Below, piece after piece: positions 4,250 to 64,000 of a stretch of DNA of 64,000 nucleotides. A program made the translations under genes and the position numbers. This stretch comes from Candidatus Omnitrophota bacterium (GTDB taxonomy: Bacteria > Omnitrophota > Gorgyraeia > 2-01-FULL-45-10): positions 8,825 to 72,824 of the forward strand of contig JBAZKH010000008.1 of assembly GCA_041650935.1 (NCBI GenBank), in the 5' to 3' direction. Under the pieces are notes generated by a model. It saw only the letters and a program-made list of their open reading frames with translations. It was not told where the DNA came from and made no database searches. Position 1 is the stretch's first letter, and each line of letters begins with the position of its first letter.

Positions 4250-4259
4250 ACTTTTCATC

Positions 4260-4790: not shown

Positions 4791-4832
4791 CTCTACCTTA
4801 CGAACAACTAACAACGCACAACGAGCAGCGAA

Positions 4833-6071: not shown

Positions 6072-6094
6072 CTGCGCACCTTCTTTCCGATCTG

Positions 6095-6150
6095 TAAAAT
6101 TTGAATTTCGTATTTGTTTAGAATTTCGATATTCGTATTTCGGGTTTAAA
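6095..6150. repeat. family 2 half-element, copy F4 (reverse orientation)
   Basis: Its reverse complement reads CTTTAAACCCGAAATACGAATATCGAAATTCTAAACAAATACGAAATTCAAATTTTAC. Confidence 0.7.
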
Positions 6151-7732
6151 GTTTTACCAATTTTAACTCGTATATGTTCTTCGACCCTCTTATCTCATCC
6201 AAAACCTTCTTCGGAACATTACTATCCACATTCCAAACACTTATGGCTTTACCGCCCTTCTCTTCGCGGCCGAACGATACGCTCGCCACGTTTATCTTAT
6301 TCTCGCCTAAGATGGTACCTATGTGGCCTATTATACCGGGCACATCCTTATTGAAGACGATGAGCATCGTCCCCTCGGGAACGCAGTCCACATAAAACTC
6401 GTCGATCTTCACGATACGCGGATCGACCTTTGTGAAGAGCGTCCCGCATAAGGAGCTCTTCATCTTGTCGGTCTCGACCTCGATCACTATAAGGCTGGCA
6501 AAATCCTGCAGTTCAGCCCTCTTCGAATCTATAACGGTTATACCGCGCTCTTTTGCCAGCACCATAGAATTCACGAAGTTTACCGTATCCTGCAGTATGG
6601 GCTTAAGCATGCCTTTTATTATCGTCGCGGTAAAAGGCGACAGGTCGTACTTCAAAAGGTCTCCCACGTACGTTATCTTAACCTTCTTTATATGCCCGTC
6701 GACAAGCTGCGCCTGGATAGCGCCCATATTTTCGGCCAGACGCAGATATGGTTCAAGGACCTTATACATTTCGGGATCGACGCACGGGACGTTAACCGCG
6801 TTCTTCACTCCACAGCCGAGGAGCGCGTCACGCACCGTATTCGCCACGTCTATTGCCACATTCATCTGCGCCTCTTCCGTAGAAGCACCGAGATGCGGGG
6901 TCAACACCACTTTCTCGAGCTTCGCCAGCTTTGAGTTCGTAGGCGGTTCCTCCTCGAATACGTCCAGCGCGGCGCCGGCCACCTTACCGGACTCTATGGC
7001 CCTGACAAGCGCCTCTTCATCTATTATACCGCCCCTCGCACAGTTGACGACCCTGACATTCCGCTTCATGACGGCGAATTCTTTATCCGATATTATATGC
7101 CTAGTCTCTTCCGTAAGAGGCGTATGGACCGTTATGTAGTCGGCATTTTTGTATATCGTCTTGAGGTCGACCAGCTCTATGCCAAGCTCCTTGGCCCTAT
7201 CGGCCGAGAGGAACGGATCATAAGCCAGCACCTTCATCCCGAAAGTAATGGCGCGCTTCGCTACCTCCGTGCCTATCCTGCCCAGACCCACTATGCCGAG
7301 CGTCTTGCCGTAGAGTTCCACGCCCATGAACTTTTTGCGCTCCCATTCGCCCCGCTTCACGGAAAGATCGGCCTGTGGTATATTACGGGAGAGGGCAAGT
7401 ATCATGGAAAAAGTATGCTCCGCCGTCGAAATAGTATTACCCGCGGGCGTATTGACGACGATTATCCCCTTCTTAGAGGCCGCCGCAACATCGACGTTGT
7501 CCAAACCGACCCCGGCCCTTCCTATTATTTTAAGCCTGGCGGCGGCGCCTATGACATCCTTGGTCACCTTGGTGGCGCTGCGCACCAGCAGGGCATCGTA
7601 ATCCTTGATCACCCGCTTAAGCTCTTCGGGCGTAAGTTTCGTATTAACGTCTACTTTGAATTCTTTCTCTTTCTCCAGTATTTCGACCGCTTCTTTCGAG
7701 AGCGAATCGCTGATCAAGACTTTGAATGACAT
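6146..7732 (-). CDS. serA: D-3-phosphoglycerate dehydrogenase
   Basis: The 528-aa protein has a 2-hydroxyacid dehydrogenase Rossmann motif (GLGRIG) and C-terminal ASB and ACT domains. Confidence 0.9.
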   Translation of the reverse strand: MSFKVLISDSLSKEAVEILEKEKEFKVDVNTKLTPEELKRVIKDYDALLVRSATKVTKDVIGAAARLKIIGRAGVGLDNVDVAAASKKGIIVVNTPAGNTISTAEHTFSMILALSRNIPQADLSVKRGEWERKKFMGVELYGKTLGIVGLGRIGTEVAKRAITFGMKVLAYDPFLSADRAKELGIELVDLKTIYKNADYITVHTPLTEETRHIISDKEFAVMKRNVRVVNCARGGIIDEEALVRAIESGKVAGAALDVFEEEPPTNSKLAKLEKVVLTPHLGASTEEAQMNVAIDVANTVRDALLGCGVKNAVNVPCVDPEMYKVLEPYLRLAENMGAIQAQLVDGHIKKVKITYVGDLLKYDLSPFTATIIKGMLKPILQDTVNFVNSMVLAKERGITVIDSKRAELQDFASLIVIEVETDKMKSSLCGTLFTKVDPRIVKIDEFYVDCVPEGTMLIVFNKDVPGIIGHIGTILGENKINVASVSFGREEKGGKAISVWNVDSNVPKKVLDEIRGSKNIYELKLVKL

Positions 7733-35307: not shown

Positions 35308-36577
35308 TGAGGAATACCGCCATTTCGCCCAAGACCCGTCCCGTAGCGCCCATATTGTCGACGACAACCTGTTTGGCGGCTCTGCCCATCTCAAGGCGCC
35401 GCTTTTCATCCGTCAGCAGGTTGTAGAGGGCGGGTACCAGGTCATCACCGCTATCGACCTGCGCGGCCGCGGATGAGGCCAGAAAGGCCTCGGCTATATC
35501 CTTAAAATTGAACATATGCTGGCCGAATATTACGGGCTTCTCATGGACAGCAGGCTCTATCGGGTTCTGTCCGCCGTGTTTTATAAGGCTGCCTCCGACG
35601 AAGACTATGGTCGCTATAGAATAGAAGTCTCCCAGGCGGCCGATGGTGTCGAGAATGTAGATCCGTCGTTCGTCGTTCGTCGTTCGTCGTTCGTCGGAGC
35701 CGGATAACCGGACCGGCTGGAAGCCGAGTTTCTTTGCGGCCTCGGCGACCTCGCCCGCTCTTTCGATATGGCGGGGAGCGATCAGCAGTTTAAGCTTCGG
35801 GAAATCTTCGATTAAATCTTTATATGCAGCGATAACGGCGCATTCTTCGCCCGGATGCGTCGACCCTGCCACTATAAGCTCGTCTCCCGTAGCCATCCCC
35901 AGCTCTTTTTTTAATACGTCGCCGCTTATCCTGCCCGCCTTGACCCGGATATCGAATTTCATATTCCCGGCGACCTTTACTCTTTCGGGCCTGGCGCCAA
36001 GAGCTATTATCCTGTCCGCGTCCATCTTCGACTGCATGCAAAGAACGTTAATGTTCCGCAATATCTTCCTTAAGAACCGGCTTACCATCTCGTACTTCCC
36101 AAAAGACCTGTCCGATATCCTGCCGTTGATGAGTATGGCCGGTATGGCGCGGCGTTCTATCTCTTTTAAAAAATTAGGCCATATCTCAGTCTCGACCATG
36201 ATGTACATATTAGGCCTCACTATACCTATAACTTTCTTCACTATAAATGAAAAATCGAGCGGAAAATATATCACAACGGCATCATCCGCAAATAACTTCT
36301 TTGCCAGGTCGCCGCCCGTCTTAGTTATCGTCGAAAAAACTATCGGCCGCGAGGGGAACTTCTCGCGCATAAGCGGGATAAGGCTCCTGCATAACGCAAC
36401 CTCCCCTACGCTCACCGCCTGAATCCATATCGCGCCGCGCGCCTTCGCAAGCGCCGCGCGCTTCGCCCTGCCGTATACGCCGAACCGCTCGAGAAAATCC
36501 CTGTGCAGTTTGCCTTTGAATATCAGCGTCGGTAGATAGAAGATCGAGAATAACGCGAATCCTATGTCGTACAACAT
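35300..36577 (-). CDS. waaA: 3-deoxy-D-manno-octulosonic acid transferase
   Basis: The 425-aa protein is of the KdtA family (GT30). It contains the GTCGTTC heptamer repeat. Confidence 0.85.
   Translation of the reverse strand: MLYDIGFALFSIFYLPTLIFKGKLHRDFLERFGVYGRAKRAALAKARGAIWIQAVSVGEVALCRSLIPLMREKFPSRPIVFSTITKTGGDLAKKLFADDAVVIYFPLDFSFIVKKVIGIVRPNMYIMVETEIWPNFLKEIERRAIPAILINGRISDRSFGKYEMVSRFLRKILRNINVLCMQSKMDADRIIALGARPERVKVAGNMKFDIRVKAGRISGDVLKKELGMATGDELIVAGSTHPGEECAVIAAYKDLIEDFPKLKLLIAPRHIERAGEVAEAAKKLGFQPVRLSGSDERRTTNDERRIYILDTIGRLGDFYSIATIVFVGGSLIKHGGQNPIEPAVHEKPVIFGQHMFNFKDIAEAFLASSAAAQVDSGDDLVPALYNLLTDEKRRLEMGRAAKQVVVDNMGATGRVLGEMAVFLNA
35665..35696. repeat. heptanucleotide tandem repeat (GTCGTTC) of about 4.6 units inside the waaA coding sequence
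   Basis: The sequence is gtcgttc gtcgttc gtcgttc gtcgttc gtcg. In the reading frame it encodes DERRTTNDERR. Confidence 0.85.
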
Positions 36578-36854
36578 CTTACTCCTAAATTTTTACGGGT
36601 CCTGCCGCAAATTTATGGGTCCTGTCCTCGGTCGCCTTTCGGTGCTCCTTCGGCCTCGCGGGTTTACAATATCGTGAGAAACTAGGCGCGTATCTAAGTG
36701 CCGCCAGAATTGCTTACGATATTTTAAGTCTTAAGCAGTGTCGCCCTGACAATGGCAATTCTAAGCGGCGGCACCCCATCCGCTTCGGCCTTGTGCGCAC
36801 CTCAAGGCTGGACCTCGGCCACCCATAAATTTGCCTAGCCTAGTTATCCATAAC

Positions 36855-36880
36855 GTAGCTACCGTTTAAACGTCAGCTAC
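36855..36880. repeat. GTAG-N6-TTTAAA-N6-CTAC palindrome P1, at the 3' end of the HNH gene
   Basis: The sequence is GTAGCTACCGTTTAAACGTCAGCTAC. Confidence 0.6.
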
Positions 36881-36883
36881 TTA

Positions 36884-37555
36884 TTACTTGCTTGCTTTGA
36901 AATGTTTTTCTAGCGGTATTTCATCAAGTATTTCGGATAACAAATTCCGTTTTTTCCTATTGCAATCAAAGCAAAGCAATCGTAAGTTATCAACAGATGT
37001 CGTACCGCCTTTCGAAAATGGAATAAGATGATCAAATTCCATCTTATTGTCAGGTACGGGCTTAAAACATTTTTGACAAATCTGCCCATCTCTTCGAACC
37101 ACTTTCAACATAACATCCCTAGGAATCTCTCGTGATAGACGCCTTATTTCTTTTGTTTCTGTGAATGGTTCGGCGTTAAAATATACGGGACAAATATGTC
37201 CAAAGATTCTACAACTAATTTCTTTTAATATTCCAGAGATTTCAACAGGGTAATCACTCGTCTTAAAATCCAAAATACATTTAATAAAAAATTTCTTACG
37301 ATTTTTATCTAATTTTTTACCACCTTGAAGTCTTCCCGTAGAAATACACTCTTTTAAGTATTCATTATGCTCAATAGCCTCACTACGTATAGGAGGAATT
37401 ATAGGGAATTGTTCAACTAAAGGTCCATAAGGACAGTATTTTATTTCCCAGCACGGTTTACAAACTAGCGATTGTTTATATCTTACTATTTTAACAATCT
37501 CTGTCGAGGGTGTTTGTATGGAGAATCCCAGAACTTTTTTTAGACACTTTTCCAT
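36884..37555 (-). CDS. HNH endonuclease with a Cys-rich N-terminal region (orphan, in an AT-rich islet)
   Basis: It has a C-terminal HNH motif (DHLIPFSKGGTTSVDNLRLLCFDCNRKK). The gene is about 35% GC, against a neighbourhood well above 50%. Confidence 0.7.
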   Translation of the reverse strand: MEKCLKKVLGFSIQTPSTEIVKIVRYKQSLVCKPCWEIKYCPYGPLVEQFPIIPPIRSEAIEHNEYLKECISTGRLQGGKKLDKNRKKFFIKCILDFKTSDYPVEISGILKEISCRIFGHICPVYFNAEPFTETKEIRRLSREIPRDVMLKVVRRDGQICQKCFKPVPDNKMEFDHLIPFSKGGTTSVDNLRLLCFDCNRKKRNLLSEILDEIPLEKHFKASK

Positions 37556-37610
37556 ATTTTACGAACGCTTTCCACTCTTGTTTTCCCAGTAAAATTTTTC
37601 GCATCCGTTG

Positions 37611-37742
37611 AAATGTGATGTGGCGATGTGGTGAGCAGGGCGTTAAAAGTTCGAGGCAGCGTACGAGAACTTTTATCGAGCGAAATTTTCACATGGCTGA
37701 AAATTTCGCGTCCTAAGCGAGCCACATTGACACAGCACATTT
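37611..37742. repeat. structured intergenic element, family 1, copy B
   Basis: It has the same architecture as copy A, with hairpins TAAAAGTTC[GAGGCAGCGTACGA]GAACTTTTA and GCGAAATTTTCA[CATGGC]TGAAAATTTCGC, and compensatory stem changes relative to copy A. Confidence 0.8.
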
Positions 37743-37772
37743 ACTGCTACATCGAAAAATTTTACGCACTCC

Positions 37773-38645
37773 TTACGCCCGCGGATGAGCTTTGTCGTAT
37801 ACCGTCTTCAGGCGGTCCATCGTCACGTGCGTATATATCTGCGTCGTCGACAAATTCGCGTGCCCCAGAAGCTCCTGAACGCTGCGCAAGTCCGCGCCGC
37901 GGTCGAGCATATGCGTCGCAAACGAATGGCGCAAGCTATGCGGCGATATGTGCTCCGACATACTGCATAGTTTTATATACTTATCGAGTATGCGCCGCAC
38001 ACTCCTGTCCCAGAGGCGCGTCCCGTTCTTCCCGAGAAAGACCGCTTCCTTATCCTTAACCTTCATCCCTTCGCGTTTATCGATATACCGCCTGAGCGCC
38101 GAAACGGCGGGTGAACCTATCGGCACCATCCGCTCCTTCGAGCCCTTACCGAAGACCTTTATGACCTCGCCGATCAGATCGACATTCCTCATATTCAGCC
38201 CTACAAGCTCGCTCACCCGGATGCCGCCCGAGTATATTGTTTCGAGGATAGCCGTGTCCCTGAGGGCGAAGACGTCATCCCCTCCGGGGCATTGGAGCAG
38301 TCTCGCCACCGCTTTTTCGTCCAGGACCACGGGCAGCCTCTTATCCAGTTTGGGAGTAGAGACGGCGGTAATCGGATTCGCCTTGATATGCCCTTCGCGG
38401 TACAGGAACCTGAAGAAGCTCCGTAAACTCGCGAGTTTGCGCGCTATCGTCCTCTTCGCGTAGTTCCGCCCGCGCAATTCCGCAAGAAATTTGCGCAATA
38501 GAAGATGGTCGATCGCCGAGACGTCCTTATCGCCGAGAAACCGGCTGAAAGATTCCAGATCTATCCGGTAATTCAGGATAGTATGCGGCGACGAATTTCT
38601 CTCGACATCGAGATAATTTATGAACTTTTCGATAAATCTCTGCAT
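37773..38645 (-). CDS. xerC: tyrosine site-specific recombinase XerC/XerD family
   Basis: It has the catalytic region (HSLRHSFATHMLDRGADLRSVQELLGHANLSTTQIYTHV). It lies immediately downstream of topA, as in dprA-topA-codV neighbourhoods. Confidence 0.8.
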   Translation of the reverse strand: MQRFIEKFINYLDVERNSSPHTILNYRIDLESFSRFLGDKDVSAIDHLLLRKFLAELRGRNYAKRTIARKLASLRSFFRFLYREGHIKANPITAVSTPKLDKRLPVVLDEKAVARLLQCPGGDDVFALRDTAILETIYSGGIRVSELVGLNMRNVDLIGEVIKVFGKGSKERMVPIGSPAVSALRRYIDKREGMKVKDKEAVFLGKNGTRLWDRSVRRILDKYIKLCSMSEHISPHSLRHSFATHMLDRGADLRSVQELLGHANLSTTQIYTHVTMDRLKTVYDKAHPRA

Positions 38646-51047: not shown

Positions 51048-52703
51048 TCACGCCTTCAGCACAGCTCCTCCGCTCGCCGACAAAACCATCTTCGCATAAC
51101 GCGCTAAATACCCTTCGCGCTCTTTCGGCTCCGGAGCCCTCCACGTAGACATCCGTTTCTTTATCTCATCATTGCTGACTAAAAGTTCCAGCTTCCTGGC
51201 CGGGATGTCTATCTCTATTTCATCGCCATCACGCACGATCGCTATGACGCCTCCGGCTTGTGCCTCTGGCGCAATGTGTCCTATGCACGGCCCCTGTGTA
51301 CCACCCGAGAACCGTCCGTCCGTAATCAAAGCAACATCATCGGCTAAGCCCATCCCCACTATAGCGGCGGTCGGTGAGAGCATCTCCCTCATGCCGGGGC
51401 CGCCCTTCGGCCCTTCGTAACGGATAACAACGCAGTCGCCCTTCTTTATCTTACCTTCCATAATCGCCTGCATCGAAGCCTCTTCGGAATCGAAGACACG
51501 CGCTTTTCCTTTAAACTTCATCATCGCGTCGGAGACGGCCGTCTGTTTTACGACGGCGCCTTCGGGCGCAAGATTGCCCTTTAAAACCGCAATACCGCCC
51601 TCTTTGTGATAAGCATTTTTGTAATCCCTAATAACGTTCTCGTCCAGGATCTGCGCGTCATTGGCTATCTGGCTTATCATCTTGGAGCTACAGGTCATGA
51701 CGTCGTTAAGCTGATTCCTCATCCGCTTGATTATCGCCGGTATCCCGCCTGCTGAATCCAGGTCTTCCATGAAATGTTCGCCTCCGGGAAGAATATTTGC
51801 GATGTGCGGCGTATGTTTCGAGATCTCATCGAACATCTCGATCGGGACATCGACGCCGAACTCTTTTGCGACCGCTATGATGTGCAGGACCGTATTCGTC
51901 GAGCCGCCGAGCGCCATATCTACCTTAATAGCGTTCTCGAACGCCTCTTTCCTGCAGATCGTCCGCGGCAGGATGTTACGGCGGACGAGATTGACGATCC
52001 TCTCTCCGGATTCCTGCGCGATCCTATCCTTCTTTGCCGAAACCGCCAGAGCCGTCGCGCATCCCGGAACGCTCATCCCGAGCGCCTCGGTCACGCACGC
52101 CATCGAGTTTGCCGTGTAGAGCCCCTGGCAGGCGCCCGCGCCCGGGCATGCGCACATCTCTAGGGCACTCAACTCGTCCTGTGAAATGTCACCCTTCTTA
52201 AATCGTCCGACCGCTTCAAACGTATCCTTGACCAGAGAAAGCCTCCGACCCCTCAAATTCCCGCTCATCATGGGCCCTGCCGTAACGACGACCGTCGGTA
52301 CGTTCAGTCGCCCCGAAGCCATGAGCATACCGGGGGTAATCTTATCGCAGTTCGTCAGGCAGACAAGGCCATCGAATTGATGCGCCTTCATGATGCATTC
52401 GATCATATCTGCAATGAGCTCACGCGTAGCAAGCGAATACTTCATACCCGTATGCCCCATAGCTATACCATCGCACACACCAGGTATACCAAAGAAGAAC
52501 GGCACCCCGCCCGCGGCGGCTATCCCGCGTTCTATAAAGCGCTCGAGCCTGGCCATGTGTATGTGGCCGGGTATGATATCGGTCCTGGACGTAGCAACGG
52601 CTATAAAGGGCTTAGCCATATCCTCTTTGGATATGCCTGTTGCGTACAAAAGACTCCGCGCCCCTGCGCGTTCAACACCTTTTTTAATCTTATCGCTTCT
52701 CAT
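51048..52703 (-). CDS. ilvD: dihydroxy-acid dehydratase
   Basis: The 551-aa protein is of the IlvD/EDD family (CDKITPG). Confidence 0.9.
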
Positions 52704-52909: not shown

Positions 52910-55900
52910 TTACGCAGCCCTTAGAAGAACTTCCTGTAAATGCTTAAGGCGGATTTGTTCGCCGGTATCGGCCGGTATGATAGGTTTGAGGATAAAGTTC
53001 AGCTTATTTATGAAGTCGACGGGGTTCTCTTTAAGCTCTCTTAATGGGATATACCTGCTTGCGCAACGCTGGGTCAAAAGACTATATAACCTGTAGAAAG
53101 ATTCGTTGTCATCGTTCAGGTAGGCCCTGCCCACCCCTATCAATCCTTCCAGATTGGTCAGGTTCCCCGCCTTAACCCTCTGACCATCAAGATTGATATA
53201 AATAACCCTGGCCTTTAATCTGTTAAGTTCTTTTATCTGGGCTTCGTTCAAACGCTCCAGGGGCAGGATCGTAACGGTGTTGTCGTCTATATTCTCACGG
53301 GCAAAAGATACAAGTTCGTCTATATTATCCTCGAAACTCACCCTGTCTTTTGTCAGCTTCGATATCTCCGTAAGGAATGGCTCCTGGCCGGGCGCGGCAT
53401 ACCCCGACCATGCTTTAATCGTGTAATCCTTTTCCGAGAGGCTCGCCTTTCCATATAGATAATCGACTATATGAAGCTTGATTGCTTCTCCGGCAAACGG
53501 GCATATCGCCGGAGGGATATTGCCCTGGCGCAATAACGGCTTATCATCTCCTTTGCCGGTCTTCAGTTTTACGCTGATCGCCACGTTAATTAAATTACGG
53601 GCATGTTCCCGCGTCTTATTATTAAGGTCTATCATCATATCGGAAAATTTATACTTTCCGTTTACATTCACAAATATACCGAGTTCCACCAAAGGCTTGA
53701 CCGCCTGATTATAAACCCTGGCCGCAAAATGTCGCTTGCCGCGGGGCTCGGTCATGCCGGGGCAGATATCGCTTTTAATGCTGAATCCTTCGCCCAGCGC
53801 CTTCTCAAGCAGCCCCCCGGGCCCGTTATCATATTTTATCATCATCAAAAACTCCGCCGGGTTACCCATTAGCCATCGGGAAACCGCGGGATCTTGAGTT
53901 GCGGAATCTTTCGCGGGATCTTGCCGGGTTATGTCATGTGGTCTTCCCGGAATCTTACCCGGCAAGGGCACGCTGCCCGGAATCTTACCCGGCAAAGGCA
54001 TGAGTTGCGGAATCTTGCCGGGTAAGGTCATGTGGTCTTCCCGGATCTTACCCGGCAAGGGCATGTCACCCGGCGCAGGCGCATCTGTGGACTTTTCACC
54101 AAAACGATCTAAGCGTATATACATTTCATCGATCAAACCCTCAGACTCTTTGATATCGACTGCGCCGGGATACATTGCCGCAAACTGCCGGTGAAATTTC
54201 TGAGCATCGCCGGTCGACGCCGGATGAGTGCGGTAATATTTCCCATCTCCGTTTTTCTTCATCTCTAAAATAGCCGCGCTCATAAGTGAATAGGCAACCC
54301 ACCGGTATTGTCTTCTTACATACATACCGTTCGACTCAAAATGATCGCCAATTAGTTTATAATCATAAAGCCCGACCGGCTCATCACCGTAATATCCGAT
54401 GACCGCAATATATTCTCCGATATCCCATTCCCGCTTTGTTTCGCTCGGCTTCTGCGCAGCCTCATGCGAAAGAGCGGCAAACCAGGCATTGCATTCTTCG
54501 ATCAACGAATCCAACCGCACGTCAGATTTTTGTTCGTCTGACAGGTTTTTATACAAGCGGAATGTTACTGATGGAAGAACCTTTTTAGAGGTATCCGAGA
54601 TTAGTCCATTCTGCTGCGCCTGCCCACCGCTCGCAAAATACGGTTCGCCGCCGGCTTGCTTGATTACAGACATCTGACGCTCATCTGCCAGCGTCTTGCC
54701 GGGTACCGGCATGAGTGTAGCTTCGGCATCCGCGGAATCTTTCGCGGAATCTTGCTGTGCGGAATCTTGCCGGGTAAGGTCATGTTGCCTTCCCGGAATC
54801 TTACCCGGCAAGGGCACGCTGCCCGGAATCTTGCCGGGTAAGGTCATGTTGTCTTCCCGGATCTTACCCGGCAAGGGCATGTTGGTATCCAGAGCGTCAC
54901 GTTTTGCGTCCCCATCTTCCTGCGGGCATTCTCCTGCAAGCGTTGCTAACCTTGCTTCAAAAGAAGATTCACTTAAGTTTTCCAATAGATAGGTCAGCTG
55001 TAAATTGTTCGGATGCCGCACAAGCTCTTTTCTGATTGCCGTTTCGACTTCGCGAGGAAATATCTTAGCGATCTCGACAAGGGCCGAATACGCACAACTG
55101 CTCGCATGATCTGGAGGATAACCTACGGCAAATATTAAATCATCTATCGCAGATCTGCCGAGAGCTATTATCTGCTTTTTCAGGCCTAATCTCTTATCTG
55201 CATCAGCATTATCCAACTTACTAAGTAGATCTTCCGTTTTCAGGGACGTGCCACTTTGGGACATTTCGCTATCCGCGTCGGCCGCACCTTCATCTAGCGC
55301 AACCTTTGTCCCATCGGATTGGACGGCACCCACTGCAGAAATCAGCTCCCATTTATACTCGTTTTTCCTTACTTCCTTAAAATCAAATGCCGCGGCAATT
55401 TTGCCGATCCATCCTCCATCCGAAGTATCTATAGCTTCCACAGATCGCAATTCCGGCAATGCTCTTAACCACGATAAAGCAGCAGCAAATAGCTTTGTGC
55501 CTACGCCCGCCTTTTGATAAGATCCCCGCACCGTCATTTCATCTATAAACCCTTCCCCCGCGTCATCTGTATGGCTTACTATCGCATATCCTATAACCTC
55601 ATTATTATTTCTCGCCACAAAAACTTTCCCCGGCCTCATCCACTTGCCATCCATTATCGACCTAAGGTAACGATTAGAAGATTCTGCGTAGGAAGGATGC
55701 ATATTACCGCCCGTAAGATAACCTTCTTCCCAAATTTTAGTAATTGCACCTATGTCGCCCGGATTTGCCGGTTCTATAATAGGCTCTGCGGGTCCTAGGG
55801 ACGGCTCTACCGGTCGCGCGCCTTGCTGTACGGCTGGGATGGCACCTTCTGGACCGTCCTTGTATTCCGCACCGCTCGCAAAATGTGGCTGGCCGCCGGC

Positions 55901-58900
55901 TTGCTTGATTACAGACATCTGACGCTCATCTGCCAGCGTCTTGCCGGGTACCGGCATGAGTGTAGCTTCGGCATCCGCGGAATCTTTCGCGGAATCTTGC
56001 TGTGCGGAATCTTGCCGGGTAAGGTCATGTTGCCTTCCCGGAATCTTACCCGGCAAGGGCATGTCACCCGGCGCGTCCATTTTTGACACGTCCCCTTTGT
56101 CAGCAACCCCGTCGTTTCTAACCTGGTTAGATTTGTCAGGTTGCGCGGGTTGCTGCGCCATCCTCTTATTTCTCTCGTTAAGATATTTCCACCGTTTAAG
56201 CATTTCGGTATCGACATGGGGGATAATTCCATTTATACTATACCGTATATCAGGATAGGGGCGGAATATGTCCGATTTCACTCTAAAAATATCAAACTTA
56301 GAGATGCTTTTCAAAACATCGGGCGAGGCATTTTTTATAAAAAATTTCAGGCTCATGCCCGAATCGCCATATAACATAAGCATTGCCAGGGACACAAATG
56401 TCATCCCATAACCATGCTGCCGGGGCAGATTTGGATATATTTGGTTAATTTTCACAACGCAGCCTTGTGGTGTTATTATTCTAAGCGGACAAGATAATCT
56501 TCCGCCGTCCCGGAATTTATTTTTATCAGAATTATGTACAAAAACGGCAAACTTTGTATTCTTATCATATTTAATCCTATCTCTTTCATCTTCCGATAGA
56601 GGCAAATCGTCATCATCTTCCCATCTCGCAAAACTTATATAATAACCCTGGGCAAAAAATTCTTCTATCCTTTGATTTAAGAGTGCTCTTTGTACTAGAT
56701 ACAAATCTGAAGGTGAAACTGTCCCTATTCCTGAGATTAAACCTGTCCCCCGGGCCGGATATAACAGCGGTTCCGAACTACGCGGAATGGTTTCGCCTTC
56801 GTCCTTCGGCGCTACGATGCTCTGCTTAGGCTGATTGGACCTGGCATCCGTACGATCACAACGGCTACCCACAATTCCCGAATAACGATATTCCTTAAGA
56901 GGCTCGGCGCTAAAGTATTTCTTCATAACATATGGAATAAAATGGAATCCGTCCGGCGCATACACCTCTTCGGTGGCAATCGCTTCTACACTCCATCCCG
57001 TATAATTCCGCTCGAGCGTATTTGCCAAATTCCCGAAAAATTTCGATACCAGACGGGATCCCTGCATACCTTCATCGATGGAAAGCCTGTCGATTTCCAT
57101 CATCTCCATGTCGGCATGCACCCTGAGAGCAAATACGAACTTAAGGCTTTCGTTAGCCGGGCGATAATGCCATATAAAATCTGCCCTGGGGTCAATGCGT
57201 TCGGCTTTGTCTATGACTATCTTATAGTCGATGACAGCGCCTCCCTCCGAAACGGTGGAAATGGCCGCTGCTACATACTCACCGGCAGGCACTTCGGCCA
57301 ATGCCTTCTTAAACTCCGGCAGACCCTGGCCTATCTTTTCCTGGATGCTGATGATTCGCACCTCTCTGCCATCGTTAAGATCGCTAAATCGTTTTAACAA
57401 CTCTGTTCCGGCAAGAAGCGATGTCAGGTTTATGCCTTCCTCCGGAGGCACGATGCTCTGCTTCCGCTGGTTAAACCTGGCACTCGACTGGCTCCGGCCA
57501 TGGCGGCCGCCTCCGAACTGCCTCTGCCACGGCTCCGGCGAAACATTCCGCGCACCCGCTATCTCTAAGTCCAGCGGTTCGATTTCCGGAGTAACGCCTC
57601 GTTGTACGGGCGGTGTCGCAAGAGTCTTCTGCGCAGGCGCATCGGCCGCATTTGTAGCAACATCCTTATTTCTAACCTGGTTAGATTCGCCGGGTTGCGC
57701 GGGTTGACCCGGAACATTGCCGGGCAAGGGCATGTCGGCATCCGCGGAATCTTGCCGGGTTATGTCATGCTGTCTTCCCGAAATCTTACCCGGCAAGGGC
57801 ATGTCACCCGGCGCGTCCCTTTTTGACACGTCCCCGCTAACTATGCGCTCTCCTTGCTCAAAAACGCAACCTGTTTCAGCGAATGATTTTAACAATGATC
57901 TGGTTATCTTGTTTTTTGTCTTTGGAATCAAATATTTCGGAATAGGCCTAGTCTCGGAGTATGTAAAATTGATAGCAACGGGTTCTATTCCAAAGTTAAA
58001 AAGCATGCCAACAAGTTCAACAACCCTGCGATTAATAGCCGGATCGGTAACCTCCCCCTCCTCAATAGGCGCGATAGCGTCATAGTCGATCGTAATTACC
58101 GCCGGCCCGGTTACCCTGCCCCTTAACGCTTTTATCGAATCAAAGATATTGGTTTTGCCGTAACATTCTATATCTTCCGGATTGGGGCGATATAACAGGG
58201 TCGTTCCGTCATCAACAGCCCTGACCCATATTCGGCGACCCGTGCTAAATCCGCCTTTCCAAAGCCTGCGCATCCAGTTACCGCAACTCAAAAGCTTAAC
58301 ACTCGGAGCATTTGCAGAATCCGGATGATGGTCAATATTTATTATAGTGGTATTTTTATCGGCAATGCCTTGTTTCTGCAGTTTCTTAACCCATCCAAAC
58401 ATCTCACGGTGGTTATTACACACCTTTACCGGTATAGTAACATCACCACGCCTTAACCACTTGACCTTCCCAAATTCTTTCACCTGCATAGCGGAATCTT
58501 TCGCGGAATCTTGCCGGGTTATGTCATGTGGTCTTTCCGGAATCTTGCCCGGCAAAGGCATGAGTTGCGGAATCTTGCCGGGTAAGGTCATGTTGTCTTC
58601 CCGGATCTTACCCGGCAAGGGCATGTCACCCGGCGCGTCCATTTTTGGCACGTCCCCATCACCCCTTTTATTCCCGCTGTTCTGCCTCTTCCATGCCTCG
58701 AGAGTATCTTTATCTACGGGAGGAAGCGCGCAATGGATATCATGCGTATTATCAAAATCCTCCCGGCTGTTGATCTCGATAGCATCCATTTCGGATAAAC
58801 TCTGGTACAATTTCGGCCTTGCGCAATAGATCGAAAATCTCTGTCTCACGTTCTCTTTGCCGGTAAGCAGGAATAACGCTACAGCCAGTGCGATTCGGCC

Positions 58901-61900
58901 GAATTGTTTGCCGTCCCGCAGCATTTGCGGAGAAAAACCTTTCAGCACTACGCTTCCGTCGCGCCTTACAAGCAGGTCAAAGCTTCCTTCCCAAGAGGTA
59001 TCCCTGAAATATTTCCCCGCTTCCGACTTTGACGATCTATAGTGCCTGACATATACCGGATTCCATACTCCGGGCTTCTGGATAGCGCCCCCTTCCGTTT
59101 CGATATAATAGCCGCTGCCTAAAAATGCCTCGACCTTGCTTCGCAGTGGTACAGGCGGAGGTGCCGCCGTTTTGCGCTCGTCAACAGGGGATAAGCTCAA
59201 AATACCTCTGCGGTTTTTTCCTTTCCGTCTATCTTTGACACTTCGCGCTTCAGATATAACCTTTACCCTATCGATCGCAAGATTGACAAAATCATTATGG
59301 TTAGCATAAAGGATAGGCCTGTTTCCATGAAAATCGACCATTAGCCACCTGGCGTTTTCGACATATTTCCCTGCCGGCCGCGGTTCCGGCAATTTCTGAT
59401 ACTCTTTCCTGGTAAGATGAATGTGCCTCACCACAGTTTCTATCCATGCATTGTCCGTATTCCTGGCGTCATCTACATACCCGCGGTATAATTCGACCGC
59501 CTTACCGGCATCGATCTTTATGCCGGTCTTCTTCTCGAGTTGTGCGGAGAGCGCCGCTACTATATCATTTTCAGCCGCCATCATTCCTCCGGGTATCGCC
59601 CATTGGCCGCAGTCGGCGCGTTTTATAGAGAGCATCTGCACCCTGCCGGGCTCGCCGTATGTCACGATCAGATCGACTGCAAAATTCGCACCCCATTTCC
59701 CGAGGACACCCCGGCCTCTAAGACCCGTCCTCCCGCGCGGATTGAGCGGACGTTTTTTATCATCCTCACGCACCGGCCCTTCATAGCTGGTAAGCACGCG
59801 CCCTATCTTAGTAATATCCTCAGGGTCGGCGTAACCGTCCGGATTACGGGTCACGTCATTCGCTAACACTTCCCTATCTACATAATATTCAGGGTTATAT
59901 TCCTTAAACGGGAAATCCCACGACACCGCATGCGAAGGGACAGGATAGCGGAAAGGATAGATAAAAGGGTTTTCACGCGCTTCCTTTAGCATTAATGCGG
60001 CAGACCTGCGTACATCTTTAAGGAATTCCCTGCGCCCGGTGTCGCGTTCCAACGTATCAAGCACGCCAAGTGTGCAATTTACCTCTCTCACAATATATGC
60101 AAGCGTTTCGTTCGCCAATCGCCTCATGTAACGCACCTGGTATTCCTGGTCCTCGGCGCTGACATGCCGGCATACGGGCATGCTGGATCCCGTAAGGTAT
60201 CTGCAAAGATTTTCGATAAACATGTACGGATCTCCGCGCCATAGTTCCATCAGGACCAGCTTCCGCTGGAGATGGACCGGCAGGACCCCTGTCTCGCTAT
60301 GTTGAACGGCAATTACGCACTCTTCGGTCCGCGAAAAACAGTCTTTAGCCTCCTGGGGACTATTATTTATATTGAACCAGATGCCGAGCAGTTCAAATAT
60401 TTCGGCAGTTTCTCTAAAAGCAGCCTGCGCATTAACATCTCCGGGCGGATAGGCGGACGGGTATCGCTTCCTTAATTCATCATAGCTTCTTTTAGTTTCC
60501 GCATATTTTTTGTTCAATATCATACGAAGCGCTCCGCTTCTTCCAAGCATGCCAACAACTTTTTTAGCCCGCCGGGGCGGGATAATCTCTTCTATCGCCT
60601 TAACCCTGTTCAGGTCGCCGGCATCAAGCCCCAGGTCTTTCTTCAGTGTCTCAAATAGGCGGGCGCCGGGAACTTCACCTCTATGCTCTAGCGAATACGG
60701 CTTGACGTAACTCCAGAGTTCCGATATCCTTTCTTCCCGCGTCTGTTTTCTATGCGCAGCTTCAGGTTTTTTCGTTACAGAGCCGGAAAGTATTGCGCTG
60801 GGGGCGTCGAGCGGCTTCACACTATGAGACGCGTCTTTTTTGGCCTCACTTTTCGCGGAATCCTGCTGCGCGGAATCTTTCGCGGAATCTTGCCGGGTTA
60901 TGTCATGTGGTCTTTCCGAGATATTACCAGGCAAGGGCACGGTGCCCGGAATCTTGCCGGGTAAGGTCATGTTGTCTTCCCGGATCTTACCCGGCAAGGG
61001 CATGTCACCCGGCGTGTCCATTTTTGGCACGTCCTTCTCATCGCTGCCATCACGTTTATAATGCACCACGAGCGGCGCCCAAAACGCGAACATGTTGTAA
61101 AAACCGTGGGTAATAATATTCGCTAGAAGGTGTATCCTGAAGGCGTATACGGCACTACCCGCGGCCGCCGCCAGCATGATTATATTGGGAGCGTCAAAAT
61201 AGATAAAAACAAGATACGGTATTCCCGCCAGGACAGCGGGCATCGATAACCATATAACACATATCCCCGTAAAACGGGTCAGCCAGTGATACCATCTCTC
61301 GTTCTTATGTTTTTTAAAAAGGCTCGGTAGATTGAAGATATTGGCCAATTCATCGCACTCGACAACCGCCGCGTACCAGCTAACCAGGAACCTCTTGGTT
61401 AGCTTCGAGCGATCTTGCCATCTCCAGGATGGGTAAGTCCTAAAGAATCGTACGACACGCCTTAGAGGAGATTGTAAAACCGGGCTGGCAGCGCCTTTCG
61501 CTTTAATCAAACCTTCTTGAGTTCTTCTTTCTTCGTCATACCTGCCGGGATGGAGAACTATCTCCGTAAGGTCCCGCATAAACTTCCGGCATTCCAGGCG
61601 GTTCGATACGCCATCCAATTTATAGTTATCGAAATGTTTCAATATTTCGGGCTCTGGGACACTGTCGCCTATGAGAGCCTCCAGGCCTTCTACAAAATGC
61701 TTCTCGAACGATTTCCTGCCGTCACCGCCATTACGCGACAAGATAAGATTACTTATAAGCTGGCAGCGTCTATATGGGTCGCTGCTGCTGCGCGCGATCT
61801 TAAGGTAAACATTCATAAGGCCTTCATTCTTTATATCGTAGTCTATATCCGAGATCCGTTCGTAGAGACTGAATGCCATCCTTAGGGTAAACGGGTCGTC

Positions 61901-64000
61901 CGAGGTATCCAGTATCCTCTCCAAGGCTGCGACATAATCTTTCCCGCAGCCGCCCAGTTTCGAATCGAAGGTATCGACGGGGTAAGGGTCTTCGCTTTTG
62001 ATACCTGCGCGCTCCAGCTTTCGCGCCAATACGTTCAACGCTACAAAAGCTTCTTCGTCATTGCCATCCAGCCCGGCAATAAGCATATCGGACGACATAC
62101 CGTACATTTTTCTTTGCCTATTATACAAAGAAAAATCAGCAATCTCTCCCGCGAACGAATTAAATAGAGTCGGCCCATAGCTAAACTCGGGCCTGTCGCG
62201 CCTATGGCTGTATATGAGCCTTAATAATAGCGACCTCCTTGCTCCTCTTATAGCAGAGCTAACCCGCTGCGCGAGATCTGCCTCCGGATCATTTTCCAGC
62301 TCCAGCATACTGAGAAATTCTATAACCGAATCCTCGTTCATATCCAACAGGTATTCTACGACTCTCATCTCCAGTATTCTCATATGGCGGCTTAACGACC
62401 AATCTTTGCCGCGCTGTTTGGAGTCTGGTATAGTGTAATATACGGCTTTAATGACATCTTCTTCGTATTTTTTCGGCAAATTGTCCAGGAAGAAAAGATC
62501 GCCTACGCGGTGTTTAACCATTTTCCTCCATCCTATCCCGCTAAAATTCCGTTCGATTTCGTCCAAGAAATAAAAATATTTGAATGTAGCCCGGGCAACA
62601 ACGCGGCTGTCGCAGTGGACCAAGAAATTATTTATCGGATCCCCTCGCGTATCCGGGCCGGCGGTTGAGGAAAGAGCGGCATGCCTGGTAACTTCGATAA
62701 GCGCTTCGAAGACCTGGTCCTCCAGACGAGCTTCGAGGTCTTCTTCAGTTTCGCTATTCGTGTCGCCGCCTGCCGGAACGCTACCGCCGGAGACGTCCCA
62801 GAGCCTTACAAACATCCTTGCGAGAGGACTCAACACCGCCGCGAGATACGTCGCGGCCGGGATACCGCTCCACGCATACCGGCCGAGCGGCGCGAATGCG
62901 CTGCCGCCCAGAAGCGGGCCGCCGGAAGAAAGATTAGCGCTACGTTTATCGCCCCGATTACGATAATCATAGTATTTCCTTATTACTTCTGCCGCCTTTT
63001 TATAAAGATCGGATGTTATCCCTGCTTCGAAGGTCTCCAGTCCGTGCATTAAATCGATAATGCTTTTCATGGCTTCACTGAACTTGTTGTAACGAAATGG
63101 TTTTAGGATAAACCAACCCCGCTGGACATCCAGTATATACGCCATAGCATCAAGCGCTTCATCAACTGCAATTACCTTTTCCGCCGCTTTTAAAAAACGT
63201 TCGATAGCGCCGTTTTTGAAATCGATGCCGGAAGATAATATCGCTTTGCTGATCGCTTTATCAATGTTGGAAAATTCTTTCGTAAGCGCACTACCCAGGC
63301 CAGTCTTCACCTGATGAGATTCAACTATAACTATGAATGAGCATAATATTACATCCCAAATTATGCCGAAGGGAAAAACCCAGGCCAGGTGCGCTATGTA
63401 AACAATTAAAACGAGCGACAGGATCGATAGCGACATATTAAACAATGCGGCTGAAAAAGATAACCATATTTGCGCACGCACCCATCTTTTGTTTAAATAA
63501 GCCGGTTCATAGTCTTCAAGACCCGGCTCATCGCCTTCAAGACCTGTAGGACCTGCCGCGATATTGACGTCACCCGTGTCTTCGCTGTCGAAGATCGAGC
63601 CGGATTCGATATAGGCCTTATGAAGCTCTTCCCAATTCAGGAGGTATTTATACTTTTTGAAAAGATGCGTCAAGTCGCGGGAATTTGTGTGGTAATCGTA
63701 CGCAAGTTCTTTGGCTTCGGGGTTACCTTTGACCCAGACATCTTTGAAGACCTTGGGATCCGGAGGAATAACCGAGCTCTGGAGAAGTTCCAGCCGCTTG
63801 GCTTCCCACTTACCTATCTCGTCCTTTTCGTGGGAAATTATTTCTTTCGAGGCCTTATAGTCCGCAGCTGCATAACGGCCGGCATCGTCCAGCTTATCCT
63901 GGTCATAATAAAATTTTTCATCGATAAATATGACGGGCAAATCGTTCCATTTCCACAGGCCAACTTTCGCAAACTGCCCCCTATTCGCGAACATGCCCGG
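52910..64000 (-). CDS. giant modular protein of at least 3694 aa: an N-terminal multi-TM region, then a NUDT9-like degenerate Nudix domain, an arginase/deacetylase-fold domain, four to five GNAT-like domains, a HEAT-like region and a C-terminal domain of unknown family, joined by six near-identical PLPGKIP linkers
   Basis: A single ORF runs from 63994, or from beyond the window, to 52910. See the findings for the individual domains and linkers. Confidence 0.8.
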   Translation of the reverse strand, partial: PGMFANRGQFAKVGLWKWNDLPVIFIDEKFYYDQDKLDDAGRYAAADYKASKEIISHEKDEIGKWEAKRLELLQSSVIPPDPKVFKDVWVKGNPEAKELAYDYHTNSRDLTHLFKKYKYLLNWEELHKAYIESGSIFDSEDTGDVNIAAGPTGLEGDEPGLEDYEPAYLNKRWVRAQIWLSFSAALFNMSLSILSLVLIVYIAHLAWVFPFGIIWDVILCSFIVIVESHQVKTGLGSALTKEFSNIDKAISKAILSSGIDFKNGAIERFLKAAEKVIAVDEALDAMAYILDVQRGWFILKPFRYNKFSEAMKSIIDLMHGLETFEAGITSDLYKKAAEVIRKYYDYRNRGDKRSANLSSGGPLLGGSAFAPLGRYAWSGIPAATYLAAVLSPLARMFVRLWDVSGGSVPAGGDTNSETEEDLEARLEDQVFEALIEVTRHAALSSTAGPDTRGDPINNFLVHCDSRVVARATFKYFYFLDEIERNFSGIGWRKMVKHRVGDLFFLDNLPKKYEEDVIKAVYYTIPDSKQRGKDWSLSRHMRILEMRVVEYLLDMNEDSVIEFLSMLELENDPEADLAQRVSSAIRGARRSLLLRLIYSHRRDRPEFSYGPTLFNSFAGEIADFSLYNRQRKMYGMSSDMLIAGLDGNDEEAFVALNVLARKLERAGIKSEDPYPVDTFDSKLGGCGKDYVAALERILDTSDDPFTLRMAFSLYERISDIDYDIKNEGLMNVYLKIARSSSDPYRRCQLISNLILSRNGGDGRKSFEKHFVEGLEALIGDSVPEPEILKHFDNYKLDGVSNRLECRKFMRDLTEIVLHPGRYDEERRTQEGLIKAKGAASPVLQSPLRRVVRFFRTYPSWRWQDRSKLTKRFLVSWYAAVVECDELANIFNLPSLFKKHKNERWYHWLTRFTGICVIWLSMPAVLAGIPYLVFIYFDAPNIIMLAAAAGSAVYAFRIHLLANIITHGFYNMFAFWAPLVVHYKRDGSDEKDVPKMDTPGDMPLPGKIREDNMTLPGKIPGTVPLPGNISERPHDITRQDSAKDSAQQDSAKSEAKKDASHSVKPLDAPSAILSGSVTKKPEAAHRKQTREERISELWSYVKPYSLEHRGEVPGARLFETLKKDLGLDAGDLNRVKAIEEIIPPRRAKKVVGMLGRSGALRMILNKKYAETKRSYDELRKRYPSAYPPGDVNAQAAFRETAEIFELLGIWFNINNSPQEAKDCFSRTEECVIAVQHSETGVLPVHLQRKLVLMELWRGDPYMFIENLCRYLTGSSMPVCRHVSAEDQEYQVRYMRRLANETLAYIVREVNCTLGVLDTLERDTGRREFLKDVRRSAALMLKEARENPFIYPFRYPVPSHAVSWDFPFKEYNPEYYVDREVLANDVTRNPDGYADPEDITKIGRVLTSYEGPVREDDKKRPLNPRGRTGLRGRGVLGKWGANFAVDLIVTYGEPGRVQMLSIKRADCGQWAIPGGMMAAENDIVAALSAQLEKKTGIKIDAGKAVELYRGYVDDARNTDNAWIETVVRHIHLTRKEYQKLPEPRPAGKYVENARWLMVDFHGNRPILYANHNDFVNLAIDRVKVISEARSVKDRRKGKNRRGILSLSPVDERKTAAPPPVPLRSKVEAFLGSGYYIETEGGAIQKPGVWNPVYVRHYRSSKSEAGKYFRDTSWEGSFDLLVRRDGSVVLKGFSPQMLRDGKQFGRIALAVALFLLTGKENVRQRFSIYCARPKLYQSLSEMDAIEINSREDFDNTHDIHCALPPVDKDTLEAWKRQNSGNKRGDGDVPKMDAPGDMPLPGKIREDNMTLPGKIPQLMPLPGKIPERPHDITRQDSAKDSAMQVKEFGKVKWLRRGDVTIPVKVCNNHREMFGWVKKLQKQGIADKNTTIINIDHHPDSANAPSVKLLSCGNWMRRLWKGGFSTGRRIWVRAVDDGTTLLYRPNPEDIECYGKTNIFDSIKALRGRVTGPAVITIDYDAIAPIEEGEVTDPAINRRVVELVGMLFNFGIEPVAINFTYSETRPIPKYLIPKTKNKITRSLLKSFAETGCVFEQGERIVSGDVSKRDAPGDMPLPGKISGRQHDITRQDSADADMPLPGNVPGQPAQPGESNQVRNKDVATNAADAPAQKTLATPPVQRGVTPEIEPLDLEIAGARNVSPEPWQRQFGGGRHGRSQSSARFNQRKQSIVPPEEGINLTSLLAGTELLKRFSDLNDGREVRIISIQEKIGQGLPEFKKALAEVPAGEYVAAAISTVSEGGAVIDYKIVIDKAERIDPRADFIWHYRPANESLKFVFALRVHADMEMMEIDRLSIDEGMQGSRLVSKFFGNLANTLERNYTGWSVEAIATEEVYAPDGFHFIPYVMKKYFSAEPLKEYRYSGIVGSRCDRTDARSNQPKQSIVAPKDEGETIPRSSEPLLYPARGTGLISGIGTVSPSDLYLVQRALLNQRIEEFFAQGYYISFARWEDDDDLPLSEDERDRIKYDKNTKFAVFVHNSDKNKFRDGGRLSCPLRIITPQGCVVKINQIYPNLPRQHGYGMTFVSLAMLMLYGDSGMSLKFFIKNASPDVLKSISKFDIFRVKSDIFRPYPDIRYSINGIIPHVDTEMLKRWKYLNERNKRMAQQPAQPDKSNQVRNDGVADKGDVSKMDAPGDMPLPGKIPGRQHDLTRQDSAQQDSAKDSADAEATLMPVPGKTLADERQMSVIKQAGGQPHFASGAEYKDGPEGAIPAVQQGARPVEPSLGPAEPIIEPANPGDIGAITKIWEEGYLTGGNMHPSYAESSNRYLRSIMDGKWMRPGKVFVARNNNEVIGYAIVSHTDDAGEGFIDEMTVRGSYQKAGVGTKLFAAALSWLRALPELRSVEAIDTSDGGWIGKIAAAFDFKEVRKNEYKWELISAVGAVQSDGTKVALDEGAADADSEMSQSGTSLKTEDLLSKLDNADADKRLGLKKQIIALGRSAIDDLIFAVGYPPDHASSCAYSALVEIAKIFPREVETAIRKELVRHPNNLQLTYLLENLSESSFEARLATLAGECPQEDGDAKRDALDTNMPLPGKIREDNMTLPGKIPGSVPLPGKIPGRQHDLTRQDSAQQDSAKDSADAEATLMPVPGKTLADERQMSVIKQAGGEPYFASGGQAQQNGLISDTSKKVLPSVTFRLYKNLSDEQKSDVRLDSLIEECNAWFAALSHEAAQKPSETKREWDIGEYIAVIGYYGDEPVGLYDYKLIGDHFESNGMYVRRQYRWVAYSLMSAAILEMKKNGDGKYYRTHPASTGDAQKFHRQFAAMYPGAVDIKESEGLIDEMYIRLDRFGEKSTDAPAPGDMPLPGKIREDHMTLPGKIPQLMPLPGKIPGSVPLPGKIPGRPHDITRQDPAKDSATQDPAVSRWLMGNPAEFLMMIKYDNGPGGLLEKALGEGFSIKSDICPGMTEPRGKRHFAARVYNQAVKPLVELGIFVNVNGKYKFSDMMIDLNNKTREHARNLINVAISVKLKTGKGDDKPLLRQGNIPPAICPFAGEAIKLHIVDYLYGKASLSEKDYTIKAWSGYAAPGQEPFLTEISKLTKDRVSFEDNIDELVSFARENIDDNTVTILPLERLNEAQIKELNRLKARVIYINLDGQRVKAGNLTNLEGLIGVGRAYLNDDNESFYRLYSLLTQRCASRYIPLRELKENPVDFINKLNFILKPIIPADTGEQIRLKHLQEVLLRAA

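Follow-up and report, generated by a model that had tools for sequence, protein, structure and literature searches.

The last 11 kb of the window, i.e., of the whole 64-kb stretch of Candidatus Omnitrophota DNA analysed here, are filled by one giant open reading frame (ORF) on the minus strand. Its product P0002 (GenBank MFA5144223.1) was shown to belong to an unnamed protein family, called the bookend family in the following, in which a Sec-type signal peptide, an N-domain of ~250 amino acids (aa) and a C-domain of ~320 aa frame a near-completely variable payload. At the alr-X-ilvD locus, this payload has been replaced wholesale between close relatives, and individual modules such as the arginase-like module M2 recur in other members in different company. 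The ORF and the constant ends are located as follows.

52910..64000, minus strand: giant ORF, window aa 1-3696 of P0002/MFA5144223.1, with the stop codon at 52910-52912.
63548..64000, minus strand: C-terminal 151 aa of the N-domain; the whole domain spans P0002 aa ~25-272, and the signal peptide lies outside the window.
52913..53875, minus strand: C-domain, 321 aa, family-defining.

A previous sequence-only reading of the window had described one continuous minus-strand giant ORF, and this was confirmed. All 3,696 codons are free of stops and the frame runs open into the window edge; ORFs in the other five frames across this region do not exceed 160 aa. At ~50% GC, the chance of such a stop-free run was estimated at ~(61/64)^3696, roughly e^-177. 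In an exhaustive HMMER search, residues 122-3817 of MFA5144223.1, a protein of 3,817 aa, were 100% identical with all 3,696 window residues. The first 121 residues, including the Sec-type signal peptide, are the sole part beyond the window edge. The entry was automatically named 'GNAT family N-acetyltransferase' and stems from a metagenome-assembled genome of Candidatus Omnitrophota (89-kb contig). The giant ORF represents an intact Candidatus Omnitrophota gene for a protein of 3,817 aa.

P0002 starts with MKRAIAAILAAVFLFNDIAFA followed by GDFQNLAP; on inspection, a positive N-region, a hydrophobic stretch and AxA were read as a classic signal peptide. The N-domain carries the motifs GQFAxVGLG..PVIYxD, H-[ED]-x-x-E on a long helix, and DVNIAA, and residues G129, Q130, G135, P143, D148, H178, E182 and N267 are invariant in the alignment. 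A hidden Markov model (HMM) built from N-domain alignment A5 matched window aa 1-153 with E=1.2e-55, and full-length P0002 aligned from residue 1. The N-domain is a candidate zincin-type metallopeptidase; its AlphaFold2 (AF2) model (pLDDT 83) gave no match with Foldseek against the PDB. For the C-domain, which the AF2 model (pLDDT 88) depicts as a winged helix at the N-terminus with a flavodoxin-like alpha/beta domain behind it, the HMM from alignment A4 matched window aa 3378-3696 with E=4.8e-127. The C-terminal tail LLxxA is conserved in the C-domain. Across the family, the extreme C-terminus follows the pattern ...LL(R/E/Q/F/I)(A/S)A-COOH, as observed in P0002 (window 52913-52930, minus strand), P0001, P0004, P0006, P0021, P0024, P0026 and others. 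It resembles the non-polar LAA-type tails recognised by tail-specific or Clp proteases and might act as a degron or in sorting; T9SS CTD and T1SS sorting signals and an ssrA-like LAA tail were considered as analogues.

A word-indexed search with the N-terminal 990 aa returned no relatives of P0002; they were found by the exhaustive HMMER search: the first 990 window residues matched 34 representative proteins at E<=1e-3, nearly all of them at window aa 1-150 only. When the full protein was used in a local phmmer search, at least 12 members (931-3,960 aa) had both the N-domain and the C-domain; across the family, lengths range from 931 to 4,308 aa. All members with protein names or contig titles are from Omnitrophota, and a scan of genome contigs returned only two short Omnitrophota contigs. 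The sequence-only reading had called the overall family unrecognised. This holds insofar as no Pfam or NCBIfam family covers either end of P0002, but the two domains define a family, and P0002 also fits a published class of long multi-enzyme Omnitrophota proteins (see below). Similarly, the C-terminal domain of about 340 aa that it had left unplaced still has no Pfam or PDB match, but is now a conserved family domain of ~320 aa.

The exchange of the payload was followed at the syntenic locus, which is defined by alr (upstream in relatives) and the conserved downstream neighbour.

51048..52703, minus strand: ilvD.

In a metagenome scan with trimmed alignment, contig L004 (830 kb) carried alr, a complete gene for a 2,993-aa protein and then ilvD-ilvB-ilvC-leuA-aroE-pilD-aroC. 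The flanking proteins of L004 and the window are 71-92% identical. In comparison, the big protein of L004 aligned with P0002 only at window aa 1-150 (52%) and 3379-3696 (63.5%). Its middle of ~2,400 aa is unrelated to P0002 and contains at least three S-adenosylmethionine (SAM) methyltransferase domains, helix-turn-helix (HTH) domains of the CI-repressor and sigma70_r4 types and, seen by eye, a P-loop-like motif, its modules being joined by a different Pro-rich linker, LPSPLPDExGxANPT. Contigs L006/L005 and L003 showed the same synteny, yet other middles. No relative keeps the module set of P0002, the order of which the sequence-only reading had left to be checked; only head and tail are constant.

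The same picture emerged from a domain census, in which 19 members contained 80 different Pfam families, nearly all in one member each. Among them were HTH_3, cytidine/MafB19-like deaminase (in two of the 19 members), WD40, PCMT, ABC1 kinase, AAA_5, low-molecular-weight phosphatase, glucosamine-6-phosphate isomerase-like, M48, HPr and HATPase_c. Reuse of a module was seen in P0036 (about 1,020 aa), encoded beside LemA, which combines the N-domain, a copy of M2 (59% identity over 212 aa), a phosphoribosyltransferase (PRTase)-like module and the C-domain. A position directly downstream of the LemA gene is the second genomic context in which family members were observed (L002/L007). On L007, the member at 3710-7660 (plus strand) is followed by a gene for a large signal-peptide protein (>1,317 aa) without similarity to the family.

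Within P0002, the modules are separated by Pro/Gly linkers. The six copies counted in the sequence-only reading were confirmed, and they contain 12 PLPG[KN] motifs.

60815..61048, minus strand: linker 1 (PKMDTPGDMPLPGKIREDNMTLPGKIPGTVPLPGNISERPHDITRQDSAKDSA...).
58475..58669, minus strand: linker 2.
57665..57847, minus strand: linker 3, a short form.
55841..56107, minus strand: linker 4; over 202 nt, the DNA of its 3' part matches the equivalent part of linker 5 with 96% identity.
54596..54913, minus strand: linker 5.
53876..54103, minus strand: linker 6; the same MPLPGK.P...TRQDS motif stands ahead of the C-domain in the L006 orthologue.

The six units lie at window aa ~985-1062, 1778-1842, 2052-2112, 2632-2720, 3030-3135 and 3300-3375 and end in ...HD[IL]TRQD[SP]A. 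Their consensus is roughly (K/R)(M/R)DAPGDMPLPGKI(R/P)EDNMTLPGKIPxxxPLPGKIPGRxHD(I/L)TRQDSA(K/Q)xDSA. Their coding DNA falls into repeat families, with up to 202 nt at 96% identity. The direct repeat of this length (window 54625-54826 and 55870-56071) encodes a near-identical 58-aa extension of linkers 4 and 5 (...DAEATLMPVPGKTLADERQMSVIKQAGG...) and points to a recent duplication or gene conversion inside the gene. Linker copies differ at synonymous and non-synonymous sites, and the counts of the two between copies revealed no special pattern. Moreover, a second, shorter linker type (...N/SQ(R/P)KQSIV(P/A)P(E/K)(E/D)EG...) was observed ahead of both halves of M3 (window 56802-56846 and 57438-57482, minus strand); this is repeat family D5, with 80% DNA identity. 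PLP-type linkers are limited to the alr-ilvD lineage. In L006, a single MPLPGKMPELPQALTRQDS stands directly ahead of the C-domain, suggesting that the six linkers of P0002 are copies of the segment preceding the C-domain. The MPLPGK...TRQDSA linkers may thus have arisen by copying this segment and would be the joints at which modules were added.

Repeats of this kind could also mislead an assembly. The ORF might be an artefact, either a chimera assembled across the repetitive linker DNA or a functionless, decaying fusion of unrelated genes, and the linker repeats (up to 202 nt, 96% identity) as well as the origin of the sequence from a single assembly speak for this. Against it stand a reading frame of 3,817 codons with no stop in between, the intact domains (NUDT9 with E=1e-26, GNAT, confident AF2 models), the non-identity of the repeats, which are shorter than typical paired-read spans, and the recurrence of head and tail in independent metagenomes at one syntenic locus, among them the orthologue of 2,993 aa that is complete on its 830-kb contig. 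An artefact is therefore regarded as very improbable.

The regions between the linkers were searched module by module.

59981..60814, minus strand: M1a (window aa 1063-1340), no Pfam match.
59267..59953, minus strand: NUDT9-homology domain (window aa 1350-1578), cap and Nudix core, catalytic box residues lost.
58646..59143, minus strand: M1c (window aa 1620-1785), paralogue of M3b (30-37% identity).
57815..58483, minus strand: M2, putative arginase/UPF0489-fold metallohydrolase, based on sub-threshold profiles and motifs.
56801..57433, minus strand: M3a (window aa 2190-2400), no assigned fold.
56105..56653, minus strand: M3b (window aa 2450-2632), paralogue of M1c.
55433..55777, minus strand: M4, GNAT acetyltransferase domain, the VRGSYQKAGVGTKL module with motif A QKAGVG.
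54881..55348, minus strand: 'HEAT-like' stretch (window aa 2885-3040), no repeat family detected.
54071..54628, minus strand: M5 (VRRQYRWVAYSL), no assigned fold.

As the sequence-only reading had proposed, a NUDT9-type Nudix domain with a degenerate box is present. By phmmer, human NUDT9 (1q33) matched with E=1e-26 over cap and core (query aa 301-529 of M1), and the NUDT9H domains of TRPM2 with 1e-15 to 1e-24. PF00293 scored 24.9 bits (cut-off 21.1), and the top NCBIfam match was the ADP-ribose (ADPR)-sensing repressor NrtR. The Nudix box GX5EX7REUXEEXGU is not matched: the HMMER alignment reads GGMMAAENDIVAALSAQ----LEKK, with N in place of the first E, AQ in place of RE and a gap at the EE positions. 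Because the catalytic REFGEE residues are missing, the domain was filed as a NUDT9-homology domain of the binding type and not as a hydrolase. By analogy with TRPM2 and NrtR, it would most likely be an ADP-ribose or nucleotide-binding sensor that binds nucleotide without hydrolysing it.

For M2, the proposed arginase/deacetylase fold received repeated weak matches and conserved motifs, but every score was under its curated cut-off (PF00491, 17.6 vs. 22; PF12640, 18.6 vs. 27; NF052474, 16.4 vs. 350). Arginase, UPF0489 and peptide-arginase profiles all matched the region in two homologues with E-values of 0.003-0.07. The motifs NNH, DHHPD (DxHxD) and IDYD (DxD) do not differ between the M2 of the window and that of P0036 (59% identity); they were tentatively placed at metal-ligand positions by inspection and the Pfam register. 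M2 has ~225 aa as compared to ~300 for arginases. Taken together, its sequence is suggestive of an arginase-fold metallohydrolase with its putative metal-ligand motifs intact.

Of the four to five GNAT domains expected from the sequence-only reading, one was recovered, namely M4 (PF00583, E=3.5e-10, 40.6 bits vs. cut-off 20.7; PF13508, 32.6 vs. 27). The additional GNAT candidates M1c, M3a, M3b and M5 were dropped: hhalign against the GNATs of M4 and P0001 aligned the motif-A register, but with a probability below 2%; at most, they might have a very divergent GNAT fold. M1a, M1c, M3a, M3b, M5 and the 'HEAT-like' stretch had no Pfam match at E<=10, and the HEAT assignment thus lapsed. PDB sequence and profile searches returned no match for M2, M3, M5, M1c/M3b, the N-domain or the C-domain. 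Profile searches of the inter-linker segments thus recovered NUDT9H and GNAT, but left M1a, M1c, M3a, M3b, M5 and the HEAT-like stretch without hits, and the payload of P0002 consists of two membrane-hairpin modules, NUDT9H, M2, one GNAT and at least five modules without a recognised fold.

The membrane-hairpin modules flank a long region ahead of linker 1.

63314..63469, minus strand: hydrophobic hairpin, ~two transmembrane (TM) helices (window aa 178-229), from a Kyte-Doolittle scan.
61286..63313, minus strand: region B, ~675 aa (window aa 230-905), no assigned family.
61055..61285, minus strand: second hydrophobic cluster, 2-3 helices (window aa 906-982), from a Kyte-Doolittle scan.

The two clusters bear out the N-terminal hydrophobic helices and membrane association noted earlier. 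Part of region B is common to family members P0004, P0019, P0012, P0032 and P0035 at 27-33% identity. The TM-cluster module (window aa ~873-990) was also observed in three copies in the long unrelated protein P0029 (2,869 aa; aa 1370-1488, 2175-2323 and 2766-2864) and in a single copy at the start of P0031. By its sequence distribution, it behaves as a mobile membrane-hairpin cassette. Most family members have an N-terminal hydrophobic segment and no others, which suggests that the TM hairpins of P0002, common to P0029 and P0031, are themselves cargo. Since the signal peptide obeys the positive-inside rule, the chain should start outside.

These domains and helices bear on the proposal, put forward by the sequence-only reading as an ADP-ribose or acetyl-group toolkit, that the modules cooperate in one ADP-ribose/acetyl pathway, e.g., in the control of O-acetyl-ADP-ribose or of protein acetylation and deacetylation. 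P0002 would then be tethered to the cell's own inner membrane with the enzymes facing the cytoplasm and the N-domain and region B acting as periplasmic sensors. A NUDT9-type ADPR-binding domain, a candidate of the arginase/deacetylase superfamily and a GNAT do share one chain, the cofactors involved are all cytoplasmic, and the internal TM clusters could bring the chain back to the cytoplasm if the second cluster comprises three helices. On the other hand, one GNAT only is supported, the Nudix domain, to judge from its box residues, should be unable to hydrolyse ADPR, the module set is co-inherited in no relative, methyltransferases and HTH domains take its place at the orthologous locus, and M2 sits with a PRTase-like module elsewhere. 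As most members lack internal TM segments, the family as a whole cannot work by a membrane-return model. The toolkit proposal is thus weakened, and a single pathway is considered unlikely.

The explanation favoured here, and judged rather probable, is that the constant ends are a functional chassis and the central modules an interchangeable payload acting independently. As a chassis, both ends would serve in export through the cytoplasmic membrane, in tethering, or in recognition and processing, and each central module would be swappable and act on its own without belonging to a single pathway. The payload may serve cell-surface or partner-cell interactions of putatively episymbiotic or predatory bacteria, as may be the case for the larger multi-enzyme giants of Omnitrophota. 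A partner-cell or surface role is suggested by the combination of fast turnover beside slow-evolving neighbours, a signal peptide and cytoplasm-type cargo chemistry, which across the family includes SAM methyltransferases, kinases, HTH domains, deaminases, PRTase and GNAT. Cargo that needs SAM, ATP, acetyl-CoA, phosphoribosyl pyrophosphate or DNA behind a secretion signal matches the logic of effectors destined for a different cell. A predatory or episymbiotic lifestyle has been proposed for Omnitrophota, and the effector logic fits it.

Two further readings were considered. First, P0002 might be a MARTX-like exported polyprotein or multi-effector toxin, the linkers of which are cut by the N-domain (as a divergent H-[ED]-x-x-E metallopeptidase) or by another protease, so that the enzymes act in the partner or prey cell; this is deemed improbable. 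Second, the bookend family might be a system dedicated to delivery in Omnitrophota with an episymbiotic or predatory lifestyle, in which head and tail export and process a swappable multi-effector polyprotein and the enzymes are freed at the linkers and act inside the partner cell. This possibility is distinctly unlikely. If true, the N-domain would be a new H-[ED]-x-x-E metallohydrolase, the effectors would comprise an ADPR sensor, an acetyltransferase, an arginase-fold hydrolase, methyltransferases, kinases, deaminases and HTH proteins, and payload swaps at the linker repeats would drive host-range adaptation.

Several points weigh against a chassis with an exported, independently acting payload. 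The C-domain looks, in its model, like a regulator of the winged-HTH-plus-sensor type, which would suit a cytoplasmic location better than export; at the least, such a domain equally suits a cytoplasmic role and qualifies the fit of the effector logic. The topology is a prediction from a hydropathy scan in combination with the positive-inside rule, and the helix count of the second cluster (two or three) decides whether the payload lies inside or outside the cell. About half of the payload modules are without assignment, and the module order of P0002, a singleton in its 90% cluster, is known from a single assembly.

The chromosomal setting of the locus is ordinary. The remaining genes of the window (ilvD-ilvB-ilvN-ilvC-leuA-aroE-pilD-aroC-dprA-topA, lipopolysaccharide (LPS) genes, purA, serA and tig) are those of a bacterial chromosome, GC content and skew are uniform, and no tRNAs were found in the 64 kb. 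An origin from a phage or mobile element was rejected given this housekeeping context (ilv/leu/aro, topA, dprA, LPS, purA, serA, tig), the lack of tRNAs and the uniform composition. A reading as a defence system was likewise rejected, as PADLOC models gave no match at E<=0.01 in any of seven protein segments. GC skew was negative in each 2-kb bin of window 1-64000 (-0.07 to -0.17), and all plausible genes of the window lie on the minus strand, which fits a single replichore with fully co-oriented genes. A local dip of the GC content to 0.444 was observed at window 36001-38000 (~0.50-0.53 elsewhere). The 1,344-aa ORF at window 13679-17713 (minus strand) contains a subtilase of family S8 (prodomain of the fervidolysin type), several bacterial Ig domains and beta-propeller/FG-GAP repeats and probably encodes a large secreted or surface protease. 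Two fused LPS-related ORFs adjoin lpxK and kdtA: that at 29983-32070 (minus strand, 695 aa) is a fusion of a GT4 glycosyltransferase and a GT9 heptosyltransferase, and that at 32358-34301 (minus strand, 647 aa) links a lipid A acyltransferase with an ELM1-like domain.

Parts of P0002 have known counterparts. The catalytic Nudix box has also been lost in human TRPM2 NUDT9H and in NrtR. The P0002 domain is similar to NUDT9 and TRPM2 NUDT9H over cap and core (E=1e-26 to 1e-15); in contrast to TRPM2 NUDT9H and NrtR, it sits in a bacterial giant protein, and its box is still more degraded (REFGEE to AQ plus a gap). M2 has weak profile matches to the arginase/ureohydrolase-HDAC superfamily (including UPF0489/C5orf22-like proteins and the peptide arginases FlmR and OhkR) and candidate metal-ligand motifs DxHxD and DxD, but differs in scoring below curated cut-offs, in lacking a PDB sequence match and in being shorter.

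As to overall architecture, MARTX and polymorphic toxins possess conserved terminal regions and variable, shuffled enzyme modules on linkers, with quick turnover between strains. The bookend family resembles them in its constant ends, variable linker-joined central modules and fast turnover. Unlike MARTX, it lacks RTX repeats, a cysteine protease domain and a type I secretion signal and has a Sec signal peptide instead; its ends are globular, and its cargo consists mostly of housekeeping-type enzymes, the sole toxin-like one being the cytidine/MafB19-like deaminase (2/19).

The closest comparison is with the Omnitrophota giants. In the available parts of two preprints, these are described as proteins of 10-147 kAA (thousand aa) that are overwhelmingly signal peptide and/or TM proteins, mostly unique in sequence and with poor Pfam coverage (West-Roberts et al. 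2023, bioRxiv 10.1101/2023.11.21.568195; Nielsen & Lui 2026, bioRxiv 10.64898/2026.06.07.730766). The 'Archaeovorins', giants of >30 kAA, have a SecA DEAD-like domain in most cases (West-Roberts et al. 2023, bioRxiv 10.1101/2023.11.21.568195), and class 1 of the catalogue of proteins of at least 10 kAA comprises 'multi-enzyme metabolic clusters' with signal peptide and TM helices (Nielsen & Lui 2026, bioRxiv 10.64898/2026.06.07.730766). The published giant class tiles unrelated enzyme domains including NUDIX, GNAT, methyltransferases and HEAT, and self-cleavage by N-terminal C39/S8 peptidases has been suggested as possible (bioRxiv 10.1101/2023.11.21.568195; 10.64898/2026.06.07.730766), S8 peptidases being mentioned with Omnitrophota giants by West-Roberts et al. 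(bioRxiv 10.1101/2023.11.21.568195). P0002 is from the same phylum and likewise combines a signal peptide and TM helices with several unrelated enzyme domains on one chain; it differs in its length of 3,817 aa, which is far under the >=10 kAA and >30 kAA of the giants. A Pfam search of P0002 gave no SecA DEAD-like, C39, S8, dockerin or glycoside-hydrolase domain. No description of the bookend N/C-domain pair with locus-fixed payload swapping was found in the available parts of West-Roberts et al. 2023 and Nielsen & Lui 2026 or by full-text literature searching. As far as these sources extend, P0002 is a small relative of the Omnitrophota multi-enzyme giants outside the published catalogues; the giants have already been described, and the bookend pair would be a new variation on them.

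Very long multi-enzyme proteins are a recognised, unexplained hallmark of Omnitrophota, and the published giants are hard to compare with each other. The bookend family introduces no new principle. It is a small, tractable version of the problem, with two alignable constant domains with confident models, a fixed alr-X-ilvD locus and wholly different payloads beside 71-92%-identical genes. Thus, module gain and loss (probably at the linker repeats), protein location and processing become testable by comparative genomics and simple biochemistry, and the family offers a useful handle on the giant-protein problem.

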